NCBI GenBank assembly: GCA_005779305.1
Contig: SXJR01000061.1
Location: 1-18,920, forward strand
DNA: 18,920 nucleotides
Source: Myxococcales bacterium
GTDB lineage: Bacteria > Myxococcota_A > Polyangia > Haliangiales > Haliangiaceae
Direction of reading: 5' to 3'
Shown: in pieces, positions 1 to 5,452 of the stretch
How the letters are laid out: each line of letters starts with the position of its first letter
How positions within the stretch are numbered: the stretch's first letter is position 1
Notes under the pieces: model-generated
The model's input: only the letters and a program-made list of their open reading frames with translations
Told to the model about the DNA's origin: nothing
The model's database searches: none
Program-made: the position numbers and the translations under genes

Positions 1-1902
1 CACACCCGCGGCAAGCGGGTCGTCGCCGAGATCACCCTGCCCGCGGCGCTGGTCGAGGAGCAGATGCACGTCTCGACCGACAAGCTGCCCGCGACCGGCG
101 CCGATCGCGCGACCGTCATCGAGGCCCTGGGCCGGATCGCCGACGCCTCGGCGCTGCCGACGGTGGCGAGCGCGCTCGGCAGCGCCGATCCGGCGATCGC
201 CGTGGCCGCCGGCGTGGCTATGGGCCGGCTCGGCCGCGCCAAACACGCGCTCGACGACACCACCGAGCTGGCCGCGATCGGCCGCACCAGGGACGAGGAC
301 GCCGGCGTGCGCTACGCCGCCACCTACGGGCTGGCCCGCGCCTTCGTCGATCCGGCCGCGCCGCCGCCGGCGGCGACCGACCCGGTGGTGCGCGCGCTGC
401 GCGACCGGCTCACCGATCAGGACCCGCTGATCCGCGCCGCCGCCGTCGCCGGCCTGGCCACCCGCAAGGCGGTGCCGGTGACCACGCCGCCGCTGCTCGA
501 TCGCCTCGACGACACCGACTGGCGGGTCGGCGTCGAGCTGGTACGCACGCTGGGCGGCCCCGCCGGCACGCCCGAGACCCGCAAGGCGCTGGTCGCGTAC
601 CTGGCGCGCGTGCAGAGCGAGTGGATCGCCGGGCGCGTGCCGCCGCCGTTCGCCCACGTCCTCCTCGAGGGCCTGCGCCAGCTCCCCGACCGCGCCACCG
701 ACGTGAAGACCCGCGGGTTCCTGGTCGCGACCGCGCGCGGCTACGCCGATGATCCACCGAGCGGCCGCCCACAACCGCTGCAGCTCGCGTCGGCGTGGGC
801 GAGCTGCCTGGCGCTGGCGGCGCTGGCGCGGCCGCTGCCATCGGCGTCGACCGGCGACGCGCTCGGCGATCCCGAGGTCGCCCGCTCGCAGCTCGAGGGC
901 TGCGGCGCCGGGCTCGTGCCCGATCACGAGGTCCGCAAGCTGGTGCTCGACGTCACCGCCGCCCACGGCGGCAGCGACGCGGTCAAGCGGCTCTCGCTCG
1001 CCGCCGGCCACGGCGACGTCCGCATCGCCGGACACGCGGTCGGGCTCCTGCCCGGGCTGTGGGAAAAGGCGTCGGCGGCCGATCGACTCACGCTGGCCGG
1101 CGCGCTGACCGACGCGGTCAAGCGCAACGACGCCGCCGTCGCCGGCTCCGCCGCCGAGGTCGCGGGGCCGATGCTGGCCGAGCGCGGCAAGGTCGGTCCG
1201 CTGGCGCCGCTCGCCGACGCCGTGGTCGCGCGCCTCGCCACCGCCGCCGGCGACGCCGAGCTGACCGCCGGCCTGCTCGGCGCCATCTCGGCCGCCAAGC
1301 TCGACGCGCTGCCCGCATGCCAGGCCATGCGCGGCGATCCCAGCCCGCCGCTGCGCACCGCCGCCCGCGACTGCGTGAAGGCGCTGGTCGGTGAGGATCC
1401 CGGGCCCGCGGTGGCCACCAAGTCTCCGCCGTCGCCGCCGGTCGATCCAGTCGCCGGCCTCAACGCGCGCACGTGGAGGCTCAGCACCACCCAGGGCGAC
1501 ATCAGCATCGCGTTCGCCGGTGAGCTGGCGCCGTGGCACGTGGCGGCGATCGCCGAGCTCACCCGCAAGGGCTTCTACGACGGCACGTTCTTCCACCGCG
1601 TGGTCCCCGACTTCGTGGTCCAGGGCGGCGATCCCACCGGCTCGGGCTGGGGCGGCCCCGGCTTCACCCTGCCCGCCGAGCCCGGCTCTCGCCTCGACGC
1701 GCCCACGCCCGAGTACGCGCCGGGCGGCATCGGCATCGCCGACGCCGGCAAGGACAGCGGCGGCTCGCAGTGGTTCGCGATGCACGGCCGCGCCCCCCAC
1801 CTCGACGGCCGCTACACCTGGATCGGCAAGGTCACCGAGGGCCAGGACGTCGTCGACCGCCTCCAGATCGGCGACCGCATCGTGCGCGCGCGCGTCGAAT
1901 GA
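1..1902 (+). CDS. HEAT/PBS-lyase-repeat protein fused to a C-terminal cyclophilin-type peptidyl-prolyl cis-trans isomerase. It is 5'-partial: the frame is open back to base 1.
   Basis: Frame 1 has no stop from base 1 to the TGA at 1900-1902. The N-terminal two thirds are Ala/Leu-rich HEAT-like repeats (EALGRIADASALPTVASALGSADPAIAVAAG...). The C-terminal 170 aa carry cyclophilin signatures (FHRVVPDFVVQGGDPTGSGWGGPGF...GGSQWF). GC3 is high throughout. Confidence 0.8.
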   Translation, partial: HTRGKRVVAEITLPAALVEEQMHVSTDKLPATGADRATVIEALGRIADASALPTVASALGSADPAIAVAAGVAMGRLGRAKHALDDTTELAAIGRTRDEDAGVRYAATYGLARAFVDPAAPPPAATDPVVRALRDRLTDQDPLIRAAAVAGLATRKAVPVTTPPLLDRLDDTDWRVGVELVRTLGGPAGTPETRKALVAYLARVQSEWIAGRVPPPFAHVLLEGLRQLPDRATDVKTRGFLVATARGYADDPPSGRPQPLQLASAWASCLALAALARPLPSASTGDALGDPEVARSQLEGCGAGLVPDHEVRKLVLDVTAAHGGSDAVKRLSLAAGHGDVRIAGHAVGLLPGLWEKASAADRLTLAGALTDAVKRNDAAVAGSAAEVAGPMLAERGKVGPLAPLADAVVARLATAAGDAELTAGLLGAISAAKLDALPACQAMRGDPSPPLRTAARDCVKALVGEDPGPAVATKSPPSPPVDPVAGLNARTWRLSTTQGDISIAFAGELAPWHVAAIAELTRKGFYDGTFFHRVVPDFVVQGGDPTGSGWGGPGFTLPAEPGSRLDAPTPEYAPGGIGIADAGKDSGGSQWFAMHGRAPHLDGRYTWIGKVTEGQDVVDRLQIGDRIVRARVE

Positions 1903-2887: not shown

Positions 2888-5413
2888 ATGGACGAGCGGA
2901 ATCAGAAGCGTGACCTCGTGCTTGCGCCGAGCGAGTACGCCTACATGCAAGACGTCACCAAGGGCATCATCAAGACGTACACCGGCCCGACGGTGATCAA
3001 CCCGACCGCGCAGGAGCGGCCGGTGGTCTTCAATCCTCAGAACAAACACTTCGAGGCGTGCACGCTCGAGCAGGCGGTGCAGCAGATCGCCATCGCGCCC
3101 GAGGGCTACTACGTCACGCTCAAGAACCCGTCGGCGAAGAACGATCATCCGGCGTCGGGCGGCGTCTACCCGTCGCCGGATCTCGAGGTCGGTCGCAAGA
3201 TCAACATCACCGGCCCGTGCTCGTTCGCGCTGTGGCCGGGACAGATGGTGAAGCTGGTCCCCGGCCACCACCTGCGCTCGAACCAGTACCTCGTGGTCCG
3301 CGTCTACAACGAGGACGAGGCCCGCAAGCACTGGAGCCAGGCGGTGATCAAGCCGGCCGGCGACGGTCCCGAGAGCACGGCGCCGATGGGCGGCGCGCCT
3401 CGCGACCTCACCGTCGGCAGGTTGTTCATCATCAAGGGCACCGACGTCTCGTTCTACATCCCGCCCACCGGCGTGGGCGTGGTCACCGACGAGAGCGGCT
3501 CGTACGTGCGCGACGCGCTCACCCTCGAGCGGCTCGAGTACTGCATCCTCGTCGACCAGAACGGCAAGAAGCGCTACGAGCGCGGCCCCCAGGTCGTGTT
3601 CCCCGAGCCGACCGAGACCTTCATCGCCCGCGACGGCGTGCGCAAGTACAAGGCCATCGAGCTGCAGGAGATCCAGGGCCTGCACGTCAAGGTCATCGCG
3701 CCCTACACCGAGGCCGGCCGCAGCTACCGCGAGGGCGACGAGCTGTTCATCACCGGCAAGGAGACCGCGATCTACTTCCCGCGCGAGGAGCACTCGATCG
3801 TCCGCTACGACGGCAAGGACAAGCACTTCGCCGTCGCCGTGCCGGCTGGCGAGGCCCGCTACGTCATGAACCGCAAGAGCGGCGAGATCCGCATGGTGCG
3901 GGGCCCGGCCATGCTCCTGCCCAACCCCGTCGACGACGTGATCGTGCGCCGCGTGCTCACCGATCGCGAGTGCGGCACCTGGTACCCGGGCAACGACGCC
4001 GTGCTCGCCTACAACCGCTCGCTGCGCCAGCTCGAGAGCGCGGCGCCGGTCGGCCGCGCCGGCGTGGTCTCGGAGAACGAGATCCAGAAGCAGCAGAAGA
4101 AGGCGCCGGCCGCGCAGCAGGTGGCGATGGGCGCCGCCGCGCCGGCCTCGCAGCAGGTCGCCGGCGAGGTGCTCGAGCGCGGCAACCAGTTCACCCAGCC
4201 GCGCACGGTGGTGCTCGACACCCGCTTCCAGGGCGTGCCGGCCATCAACGTCTGGGTCGGCTACGCGCTGATGGTGGTCGACAAGCAGGGCCACCGCCGC
4301 GTCGAGCAGGGCCCGGTCAACCTCCTGCTCGGCTACGACGAGACCCTCGAGGTCATCGAGCTGTCGACCGGCAAGCCCAAGTCGACCGACCGCCTGCTGC
4401 AGACCGTGTTCCTGCGCGTGCTCAACAACAAGGTCGGCGACATCTGCGTGGTCGAGACCAGCGACCACGTGCAGGTGACGCTCGAGTACTCGATGCGCGT
4501 CAACTTCACCGGCGACGCCAACCGCTGGTTCGAGGTCGAGAACTACGTCAAGTTCCTGTGCGACCACGTGCGCAGCGTGCTCAAGGGCGCGATCAAGAAG
4601 GTCTCGATCGAGCAGTTCTACGCCGGCTCGATCGACATCATCCGCGACGTCATGCTGGGCAAGGCCGAGAAGTCGGACAAGCCCGACAAGCCCGACGTGG
4701 TCCGGCCCGGCATGCGGTTCCCCGAGAACGGCATGCACGTCACCGACGTCGAGGTCCTCGAGGTCTCGATCGACGACGAGGCGATCTCCAACCTGCTCGG
4801 CGACGCCCAGCACGACGCCGTGCAGTCGAACATCAAGCTGATCGGCGCCCAGCGCGGGCTCGAGGTGGTGAAGAAGCAGGAGAACATCGCCCGCGAGACC
4901 GCGATCGCGCAGGCCGAGACCCGGCGCAAGCTGGCCGAGCTCGAGATCGAGGCGATCGCGGCCCGCTTCCGGGTCGCGCTGGCCGGCGTGCAGGGCGAGC
5001 TCGACGAGGCCAAGGCCCGCGAGGGCGCGGCGGTCGCGCGCAACGCCGCCGTCGACGTCGATCACAAGGCCAACCTGCGCCGCAGCGACGAGATCGAGGC
5101 GGCGGCGCTGACCACCGCCCGAGGCCGTCAGACCCTGGCCCTCGAGGCGCTCGCCGCCGAGGTCAGCGCGGTGGTCCAGCGCTTCGAGGCCGCGCAGGGC
5201 GGCTTCAGCGAGGCGCTGCTCGCGCTCTCGTCGCGCGAGACCCTGGCCAAGGTCGCCGAGGCCATGAGCGTCCAGTCCTTCGTCGGCGGCAAGACCCTCA
5301 CCGACGTCATCGACAAGGTCTTCGCCGGCACGCCGCTGGCCGGCCTCATGGACAAGGTCAAGGACCGCGTGGTCGGCGGCAACGGCGAAGCGCCGCGGTT
5401 GCCGGGCGCCTGA
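2888..5413 (+). CDS. Major vault protein (MVP) homolog, full length, 841 aa.
   Basis: A GGGGGGA Shine-Dalgarno lies 5 nt upstream of the ATG. The N-terminus shows MVP-repeat-like segments ([47 protein letters not shown]). The middle region aligns by eye with the eukaryotic MVP shoulder and cap region. [20 protein letters not shown] matches [57 protein letters not shown] matches [61 protein letters not shown] matches [22 protein letters not shown]. About 200 aa of Ala/Glu/Arg-rich coiled coil (cap-helix) follow. There is no signal peptide. The eukaryotic MVP comparison is from memory. Confidence 0.88.
   Translation: [841 protein letters not shown]
5348..5409 (+). repeat. Direct repeat copy 1. 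It is the last 62 nt of the MVP CDS ([21 protein letters not shown]) and is duplicated at 8521-8582.
   Basis: atggacaaggtcaaggaccgcgtggtcggcggcaacggcgaagcgccgcgg is identical for 51 nt in both copies. The next 11 nt differ at 2 positions (gttgccgggcg vs gctgccaggcg). Confidence 0.9.
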
Positions 5414-5452
5414 GCCGCAGCCGCACCCGCAGCCGCACCCGCACCCGCAACG
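5414..5452. repeat. C-rich simple repeat (gccgcagccgcacccgcagccgcacccgcacccgca) immediately after the MVP stop.
   Basis: Visible reiteration of a cagccgcacccg unit. Its composition resembles the C-rich repeats after the second MVP-end copy at 8651-8737. Confidence 0.6.

Follow-up and report, generated by a model that had tools for sequence, protein, structure and literature searches.

Background

Mammalian major vault protein (MVP) self-assembles into a closed barrel of D39 symmetry, and the function of the resulting particle, the vault, is still unsettled about 40 years after its discovery in 1986; it could be easier to approach in bacteria that have a single shell gene. Eukaryotic MVP (rat, human and rabbit; PDB 4V60, 4HL8, 9BW5 and 9Z4W) is 861-893 aa long and follows one domain order: repeats, nine in vertebrates, with a disordered loop in the penultimate one, then an SPFH-like shoulder, a cap helix and a C-terminal tail.

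Bacterial homologs of MVP, myxobacterial ones included, were described in 2013 (Daly et al., PMC3762200) and in 2019 (Sokolskyi, bioRxiv 10.1101/872010). These published surveys comprise about ten bacterial sequences, and the homologs described come from Corallococcus (H8MNI3), Plesiocystis (A6FXM1/A6FXE2), Enhygromyxa, Saprospira, Microscilla and Herpetosiphon. The view that "only a few Bacteria" possess MVP was still quoted in 2026 (PMC12962969). The same work reports Asgard homologs, likewise prokaryotic and known from models only, which possess repeats, shoulder and cap helix; the Asgard representative, with five repeats, was modelled as a 10-mer. More distant are the cage formers of the SPFH clan (HflK/C, flotillin, prohibitin, stomatin and QmcA). 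They share the shoulder-type alpha/beta domain, and the long helix that follows it bundles into a closed cap, but they are membrane-anchored, lack MVP repeats, measure only 250-430 aa and, in bacteria, are often accompanied by NfeD or FtsH.

The gene analysed here lies on contig SXJR01000061.1, within a window (the whole stretch of DNA that was analysed) of 18,920 nucleotides. As far as their descriptions go, the published bacterial homologs resemble its product in being hosted by Myxococcota (Nannocystaceae included), in their Pfam signature and in their length of about 830 aa, and they are likewise known from in-silico work only; the source organism differs, since here it is an uncultured lineage similar to Kofleriaceae/Myxococcales.

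Identification of an MVP homolog

The open reading frame, according to both the ORF list and the translation, starts with ATG and ends with TGA, and M1 and the motif next to it are near-invariant among homologs, so the start codon is correctly assigned. The N-terminus is polar and carries no signal peptide, and the highest mean hydropathy over 19 residues (Kyte-Doolittle) is only 1.18, so that there is no transmembrane segment; like the eukaryotic proteins, this member of the family is therefore predicted to be soluble and without anchor. This agrees with the first-pass annotation, made from the sequence alone, which had described an 841-aa reading frame without signal peptide.

The same annotation had recognized in the protein an intact homolog of MVP and had proposed to check this with Pfam models and a structure prediction; both checks bear it out. 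MVP_shoulder (PF11978) matches aa 513-629 with E 5.3e-26 and 91.4 bits (cut-off 25), covering positions 2-117 of the 118 in the profile, and Vault_3 (PF17795) matches aa 467-509 with E 1.3e-7 and 32.1 bits (cut-off 28.8). All 49 relatives that were scanned also match MVP_shoulder. Sequence searches of the PDB returned MVP chains only, with E 9e-18 for the single sequence and 2.6e-29 for the family profile, and identity with human MVP is about 24%. Two shoulder alignments with eukaryotic MVP, which had been given in the first-pass annotation, were both reproduced by phmmer against rabbit MVP 9z4w, where vvetsdhvqvtleys is aligned to tietadharlqlqlay and fpengmhvtdvevlevs to fpqnglvvssvdvqsve.

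Collinearity extends well beyond the shoulder. The family profile, compared by HHalign with human MVP 1-547 as a single-sequence target (100% identical to PDB 11dr), gave a probability of 98.5% and E 3.5e-15 over 441 collinear columns. An AF2 model based on a 150-sequence alignment reached a mean pLDDT of 83; it supersedes an earlier one, built on 49 sequences, with pLDDT 59 and an unreliable N-terminus. Searched with Foldseek against the PDB, the model retrieved full-length MVP chains as its best 12 matches (E 2e-34 to 9e-27), followed by the murine MVP R1-R7 crystal structure 3gf5 (E 4.8e-16, TM 0.60) and, after it, by SPFH cages. Compared with MVP chains from assembled vaults, the monomer model is bent differently; global TM scores are therefore low (0.25-0.47), and superposition is good only at the level of domains. 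MVP chains were the best matches in all searches, whether by sequence or by fold. The 841-aa protein is a genuine homolog of MVP, collinear with the eukaryotic protein from repeat 1 to the cap region.

Domain organization

The features of the gene and of its product are collected in Table 1.

Table 1. Coordinates of the MVP homolog gene and of its domains (nucleotide positions in the window)
Feature	Residues (aa)	Position	Strand	Notes
MVP homolog gene		2888..5413	+	Complete, stop codon included; 841 aa, 92 kDa, pI 6.2
N-terminal beta-rich MVP-type repeats	10-405	2915..4102	+	AF2 pLDDT >90 over most of the region
Disordered, low-complexity, length-variable loop	406-450	4103..4237	+	At the position of the eukaryotic R8 disordered loop
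Last repeat, equivalent of eukaryotic R9	452-512	4241..4423	+	Vault_3; pLDDT ~97
LSTGKPK, counterpart of the "keyhole loop"	492-498	4361..4381	+	Aligned to human LSAGRPK 500-506
Shoulder domain, SPFH/band-7-like fold	513-629	4424..4774	+	MVP_shoulder; pLDDT 85-97
Cap-helix-like single alpha helix, 138 aa	631-768	4778..5191	+	DSSP on the AF2 model
C-terminal tail, three short predicted helices, possible cap-ring equivalent	769-841	5192..5410	+	Low pLDDT

The domain order is that of eukaryotic MVP and the total length is nearly the same. The repeats are of MVP type, as indicated by the Vault_3 match, by the Foldseek match to 3gf5 and by the HHalign collinearity with human R1-R9. Before the disordered loop about seven units can be distinguished, starting near aa 10, 64, 118, 195, 243, 300 and 348, the last of them helix-rich and resembling eukaryotic R8, and a variable internal loop interrupts the region at aa 157-178. 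A self-comparison by HHalign for internal repeats gave weak signals (probability at most 57%). The last repeat was aligned to MVP 462-520 by both phmmer and hmmsearch. Counting the repeats against the nine of eukaryotic MVP had also been proposed in the first-pass annotation; DSSP on the AF2 model and the alignment suggest a total of about eight, a single unit standing in place of human R2 and R3. The Asgard representative has five, against about eight in this bacterial protein, which nearly equals eukaryotic MVP in length.

The disordered loop, which has pLDDT <50 at aa 408-434 and is aligned opposite human MVP 429-463, is longer than in the eukaryotic protein, which also lacks the extra loop within the repeats. 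The family consensus is missing at the disordered loop, and many relatives break there into two matched stretches.

The predicted cap helix follows directly after the shoulder with pLDDT 60-88, and the HMMER alignment runs on through MVP 647-809; it is somewhat shorter than the helix of about 155 aa in eukaryotic MVP. Where a cap coiled coil of about 200 aa had been claimed, the model thus gives a 138-aa helix and then a low-confidence tail of about 70 aa. The phmmer alignment reaches query residue 808 (MVP 842), pLDDT is <50 at aa 769-804 and 827-841, and some positions of the tail are conserved in the family (A790, M793, G800, G801, V807 and G814); together they point only weakly to a cap-ring equivalent. 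The complete architecture for a half-shell, as first proposed, is slightly inexact in the number of repeats, and its cap-ring part has weak support.

The keyhole loop

In human MVP, K506 contacts the diphosphate of NAD+/ADP-ribose (pocket residues from PMC12280208), and the LS(T/A)GxPK loop to which this lysine belongs is common to eukaryotic MVP and to the bacterial homolog. Among 150 bacterial sequences S493 and K498 are invariant, while P497 is found in 148 and G495 in 143; S493, P497 and K498 align with human S501, P505 and K506. Bacteria thus share an invariant core with the NAD+/ADP-ribose-holding loop of human vaults, and Lys498 is an obvious target for mutagenesis. Most other residues of the human pocket are changed in the alignment: H509 corresponds to D501, K573 to D559, W545 to V538 and P565 to E551. 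Because the pocket is conserved only in part, the binding of a nucleotide, NAD+ or an ADP-ribose-like ligand by the S..PK loop is a speculative proposal.

Proposed assembly of the protein and alternative readings

Assembly into a cage is, in our analysis, the most likely mechanism for this protein. Purely by analogy with eukaryotic MVP, which alone assembles the shell, and with all solved SPFH relatives (HflK/C, flotillin, prohibitin and stomatin), many copies would pack side by side. Repeats and shoulders would make up the wall, with the long helices bundled into a closed cap by the same logic as in the SPFH-clan cages; the resulting particle would be a soluble cup, or a two-cup barrel, with a lumen. 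Located between the last repeat and the shoulder, the invariant S..PK loop would sit at the subunit interface and, as in human vaults, might bind a phosphate-bearing ligand (nucleotide, NAD+ or ADP-ribose). Taken as a whole, a cytoplasmic member of the MVP family whose copies pack into a lumen-enclosing cup or barrel, with a phosphate ligand bound by the loop at the interface, is the reading that we consider probable, although by no means assured. Since there is one repeat fewer than in vertebrate MVP and the loops are different, particle size and symmetry are not transferable from the eukaryotic vault. The literature searched contains no report of a vault particle for any bacterial member, in agreement with the first-pass annotation.

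A true MVP homolog could also do without a closed vault and form an open ring, a small decamer-type cup, filaments or a membrane-associated coat, or serve as a scaffold in another role. We regard this as rather unlikely, although it deserves serious consideration: the repeats number about eight and not nine, their loop insertions differ, conservation and model confidence are both low in the C-terminal cap-ring region, Asgard homologs with five repeats were modelled only as a 10-mer cup (PMC12962969) and eukaryotic vaults can, according to PMC13100048, be membrane-associated in situ. However, the solved relatives that possess the module of shoulder plus long helix (those in the Foldseek list) all form a closed cap, and the wall-forming repeat region is the most conserved, which is hard to explain without lateral packing.

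The identification as an MVP homolog has also to be weighed against an ordinary membrane scaffold of the SPFH/band-7 type (flotillin, HflK/C, stomatin) with unrelated flanks, in which the likeness to MVP would reflect only the shared SPFH fold. Band_7 (PF01145) weakly matches 22 of 49 relatives, SPFH cages occur in the Foldseek list with E 5e-7 to 1e-3, and one relative is named "SPFH domain-containing protein" by NCBI. The protein itself, however, has no Band_7 match at E<=1, as against 91 bits for MVP_shoulder; over its N-terminal 400 residues it resembles the crystal structure of MVP R1-R7 (E 5e-16) and is collinear with human R1-R9; it has no membrane anchor, and neither NfeD nor FtsH is encoded among the neighbours of its gene. 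It does not qualify as a canonical SPFH/band-7 protein, the kinship of fold found by Foldseek being at the level of the clan only, and as far as in-silico tests go this very improbable reading is refuted.

The bacterial family and its genomic context

Bacterial homologs had been presented as rare in the first-pass annotation, and this does not hold. The search at E<=1e-5 yielded more than 6,600 proteins (90% clustering), the matches at 50% identity amounted to 1,229 clusters, and species-representative bacterial genomes, cultured Nannocystis among them, contained 80 loci, with orthologs 44-92% identical. Relatives come from Myxococcota, Riflebacteria, Desulfobacterales and other groups, and the JGI annotation of these proteins is "major vault protein". 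In an alignment of 150 sequences, down to 39% identity with our protein, 24 positions are invariant and about 130 are conserved in at least 90% of the sequences, most of the conserved positions falling in the repeat region, the most conserved part of the family. Conservation is strong over hundreds of bacterial lineages and the architecture is uniform, no fused domains having been detected by Pfam in the ten longest relatives, which speaks for selection on function. A homolog search seeded with rabbit MVP 467-842 retrieved only partial eukaryotic MVPs of at most 653 aa. The gene belongs to a large bacterial MVP family that has already been published, and with thousands of relatives the locus adds little as an instance; the survey reveals a family far larger and more uniform than quoted, two to three orders of magnitude above the published lists. 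For experiments, the uncultured lineage of this locus is a less suitable starting point than cultured carriers such as Nannocystis exedens DSM 71 and N. punicea FL3.

The genes around the MVP homolog include a Peptidase_M50B, a TonB-receptor-like barrel and an alpha/beta hydrolase. The first-pass annotation had suggested looking for conserved neighbours in related genomes, and neighbours proved to be shared only among close relatives, with MVP at least 90% identical. Myxobacteria encode many Ser/Thr kinases, and a de novo search for conserved neighbours at 83 loci found as the only widespread cluster such kinases, at 29 loci; they are about 30% identical and vary in position, orientation and length, so the cluster looks like background. 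Three non-myxobacterial loci had no partner gene in common. Within the 19-kb window and the flanks of related loci there were no TROVE, PARP or NACHT domains among the neighbours and no genomic hint of counterparts of TEP1, PARP4 or vault RNA, the partners known from the eukaryotic vault. Rfam gave no family in the window, the PADLOC models of anti-phage defence systems had no match at E<=0.01 for the MVP homolog or five neighbours, and promoter and terminator scans yielded nothing useful.

One neighbour was considered as a partner. The gene for a protein with VIT, P_proprotein and VWA_2 domains lies 4.4 kb downstream (9810-12263), vault PARP has VIT and vWA domains, and the linkage is kept in relatives with about 90% identical MVP, so that the pair might be taken as a bacterial counterpart of MVP and PARP4. 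We reject this as extremely improbable: the VIT-VWA protein has no PARP domain and carries a typical signal peptide, which implies export, whereas the MVP homolog is cytoplasmic, the two are kept apart by genes on the opposite strand, of which there are three in the window and one in the closest relatives, and the linkage is gone at all loci where MVP identity is 82% or less.

The gene invariably stands alone, so the shell protein is probably self-sufficient. We can then tentatively extend our reading of the single protein, at clearly lower confidence, to the possibility that bacteria of many phyla build vault-like cages from a single stand-alone gene, with the S..PK loop binding a ligand of nucleotide or ADP-ribose type. 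If this were true, the vault shell and its ligand pocket would predate eukaryotes, and the function of vaults could be tested in Nannocystis and similar organisms that are in culture and genetically simpler.

Origin of the gene

MVP is best known from eukaryotes and horizontal transfer has been proposed for the cyanobacterial copies (PMC3762200), but contamination of the assembly by eukaryotic DNA, or very recent acquisition of the gene from a eukaryote, has a negligible probability and is refuted for this locus by a GC3 of 0.976 in line with the flanking bacterial genes, by the absence of introns, by the identical protein on four independent metagenome contigs, by the orthologs at 80 bacterial genome loci and by an identity with human MVP of only about 24%. 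With the highest GC3 and the lowest Nc (26.7) the gene is the most biased among the 12 genes of the window, which upholds the host-type codon usage and very high GC3 noted in the first-pass annotation. It is a resident bacterial gene, as is also supported by bacterial neighbours and by a gene order that recurs in independent assemblies of related Kofleriaceae/Myxococcales MAGs, the closest named relatives of the source myxobacterium.

The gene and its product

The window has a G+C content of 65-77%, and its third-position GC plot gives twelve genes, among them the ORF encoding the major vault protein (MVP) homolog. This ORF opens with an ATG, a start supported by the near-invariance of Met1 in homologs and by the conserved motif that follows it, RDLVLAP.EYA. 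The product has a mass of 92 kDa and a pI of 6.2; its 19-residue hydropathy peaks at 1.18, too low for a hydrophobic stretch, and it lacks a signal peptide, so that ORF, translation and hydropathy agree with the 841-aa protein lacking a signal peptide described by the first-pass annotation. With a GC3 of 0.976 and an effective codon number of 26.7 the gene is the most biased of the twelve and, for this reason, it is native, as had been claimed against a recent transfer, and, judging from codon usage, probably well expressed. An imperfect hexamer array begins at its stop codon; it is length-polymorphic, since L001, a related locus from one metagenome assembly, has three more units (18 bp) than the window and the related locus L002.

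Features of the window and of the MVP homolog
Feature	Position	Strand	Description
HEAT-cyclophilin fusion	64-1902	+	612 aa; HEAT repeats, C-terminal cyclophilin-type peptidyl-prolyl isomerase
MVP homolog	2888-5413	+	841 aa
Variable loop	aa 157-178		
Disordered loop	aa 406-450		length-variable; at place of eukaryotic R8 long loop (human 429-463)
Vault_3 (Pfam)	aa 467-509		E 1.3e-7, above curated cut-off
Shoulder, MVP_shoulder (Pfam)	aa 513-629		E 5.3e-26, above curated cut-off
9-bp repeat CAAGCCCGA	4660-4696 (aa 592-603)		about 4 copies
Single helix	aa 631-768		138 residues, directly after shoulder
Hexamer array CCGCAC/CCGCAG	5413-5449		about 6 copies
Two genes, 151 aa and about 582 aa	5574-8358	-	no firm family match
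Heptamer array CCCGCCA	8650-8736		about 13 copies, 72% matches; intergenic, between minus-strand genes 6526-8358 and 8738-9742
VIT-VWA protein	9810-12263	+	817 aa; VIT, proprotein-convertase P, VWA; clear N-terminal signal peptide
9-bp array TCACGCCGG	13631-13693	+ (unit as written)	seven perfect copies, at junction of two minus-strand genes

Sequence and fold of the MVP homolog

The Pfam search proposed as a check gave both MVP families above their cut-offs, and phmmer against all PDB sequences matched MVP chains only (E 9e-18), in an alignment where the two residue matches to eukaryotic MVP quoted earlier recur. A profile from 49 relatives lifts this match to E 2.6e-29. HHalign of the bacterial profile against human MVP (residues 1-547, 100% identical to PDB 11dr) was collinear over 1-540, with a probability of 98.5%, E 3.5e-15 and 441 aligned columns. 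Structure prediction, the other check proposed, points the same way. AlphaFold2 modelled the N-terminal half poorly from a 49-sequence alignment; from 150 sequences the mean pLDDT was 83, exceeding 90 over most of aa 10-400. Ranks 1-12 of a Foldseek search of the PDB are full-length MVP chains (E 2e-34 to 9e-27), followed by crystal structures of murine MVP repeats R1-R7 (E 5e-16, TM 0.60) and then by the SPFH-clan cages flotillin, HflK/C, prohibitin and stomatin. Against MVP chains from assembled vaults the global TM-scores are only 0.25-0.47, as the domains of the monomer model are bent differently relative to one another. An SPFH protein with unrelated flanks, named beforehand as the refuting case, is excluded, since matches in sequence, fold and HHalign span MVP including its N-terminal repeats. 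The window protein is almost certainly an MVP homolog, and the analysis as a whole shows it to be full-length, soluble, strongly conserved and stand-alone.

In the DSSP string of the model, beta-rich units begin near aa 10, 64, 118, 195, 243, 300, 348 and 452; a single bacterial unit (aa 74-125) aligns opposite human R2+R3, while the others face R1 and R4-R9. The N-terminal repeats of MVP type were therefore rightly recognized, and their number would be about eight and not the nine of eukaryotic MVP, one fewer than in the vertebrate protein. After aa 768 the tail is modelled with low confidence as three short helices and aligns weakly to the cap-ring region. The repeat CAAGCCCGA inside the gene encodes KSDKPDKPD, a shoulder-domain loop of variable length across the family.

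Proposed assembly and the keyhole loop

By analogy, the repeats and shoulders of many copies would pack laterally and the long helices would bundle, giving a closed homo-oligomeric cup or barrel. We lean, by a modest degree, towards such a cage, because eukaryotic MVP builds its shell alone and because of the likeness to every solved shoulder-plus-helix protein. The main rival, an MVP homolog with a different oligomeric state or role, is possible but clearly less probable. An ordinary SPFH scaffold and contamination of the assembly are both very improbable.

NAD+/ADP-ribose is held between neighbouring shoulders of human MVP with the help of the keyhole loop R504-P-K506-R-P-H509-A-R511 (PMC12280208), and native brain vaults likewise showed this loop with ADP-ribose (bioRxiv 10.64898/2026.05.01.722283). 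In the alignment, LSTGKPK (492-498) of the window protein stands opposite human LSAGRPK (500-506); S493 and K498 do not vary among 150 bacterial sequences, and P497 is kept in 148 and G495 in 143. Such conservation clearly points to strong constraint on the loop, and ligand binding by it may be hypothesized. Other residues of the human NAD+ pocket are not kept in the window protein (H509 to D501, K573 to D559, W545 to V538, P565 to E551).

A large and already described family

Bacterial homologs had been called rare, which is wrong: clustering at 90% identity leaves over 6,600 family members at E<=1e-5, and clustering at 50% identity leaves 1,229 clusters at E<=1e-3, 620 of them at E<=1e-30; bacterial homologs, myxobacterial ones included, were published in 2013 (Daly et al., PMC3762200) and 2019 (Sokolskyi, bioRxiv 10.1101/872010), and Asgard (PMC12962969) and phage homologs after those surveys. 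Many bacterial members carry the JGI annotation 'major vault protein'. Nearly all of the 150 clusters listed at 50% identity are 800-930 aa long, and no additional domains were found in the longest relatives. Four metagenome contigs encode the identical protein, and the nearest named relatives are Kofleriaceae/Myxococcales MAGs (90-92% identity). Among species-representative genomes, 95 relatives were confirmed, and loci were taken from the best 80; they include Kofleriaceae, Haliangiales, Nannocystaceae, Polyangia and Bradymonadia. A search seeded with a spirochaete protein extends the family to Riflebacteria, Ozemobacteraceae, Desulfobacterales, Eremiobacterota and others. Far from Myxococcota, homologs occur in Candidatus Achromatium palustre (L046, 63% identity) and Spirochaetes bacterium GWB1_36_13 (L082, 44%); the former resembles myxobacterial sequences more closely than the Nannocystis copies do, which horizontal transfer or a binning error could explain.

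The family assignment is correct and the novelty claim is not: the window protein joins a known, experimentally untouched family. The earlier statement that prokaryotic vault assembly is unsettled holds, as the literature searched contained no bacterial vault particle and no experiment on bacterial MVP homologs. Bacterial vaults are a real question, and this locus is one of thousands; the cultured carriers Nannocystis exedens DSM 71, N. punicea FL3, N. bainbridge and N. radixulma are better test beds.

Genomic context

The MVP gene is preceded on its own strand by the HEAT-cyclophilin fusion, which keeps this place just in the close clade, and by an alpha/beta hydrolase gene; downstream it is followed by three genes of opposite orientation, none with a family match, and then by the VIT-VWA gene. 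The Pfam name 'vault protein inter-alpha-trypsin' (VIT) suggests a link to PARP4, the vault PARP of eukaryotes, but a comparable partnership with the MVP homolog is highly unlikely: the signal peptide marks an exported protein, the opposite-strand genes stand in between, and tblastn searches with every window neighbour in 89 related loci found this gene, like the other neighbours, only at loci whose MVP is at least about 90% identical. Flanks are entirely different where MVP is 74% and 67% identical and in three loci from other phyla, and in all five, opposite-strand genes or intergenic spacers longer than 100 bp set the MVP gene apart. Unusually long non-coding spacers precede MVP in L091 and L092, outside the window's myxobacterial group (about 780 and 1,640 bp).

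De novo clustering of flanking ORFs from 83 loci gave one cluster common to many, Ser/Thr kinases (29/83), at most 6 kb from the MVP homolog, in varied positions and orientations and with about 30% mutual identity. Myxobacteria encode many such kinases, so these neighbours are probably background. Kinase-bearing loci include L007, L018, L049, L053, L057, L035 and L060; in about seven loci the kinase is the immediate upstream neighbour, in the same orientation or divergent. PADLOC and Rfam scans returned nothing.

The genes of 151 aa and about 582 aa, the larger with a sub-threshold fn3 match only, have a lower GC3 (0.84-0.89) and are confined to assemblies with the identical MVP protein; L005/L006 (MVP 90% identical) lack both but are otherwise syntenic, as if the two genes had been inserted recently or these relatives had lost them. 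Farther downstream, the TCACGCCGG array encodes (VTG)n at the N-terminus of a 208-aa protein, with a GTG start possible in each unit; in L001 the protein is called with 208 aa and in L002 with 211 aa, suggesting that the array varies by one unit between them.
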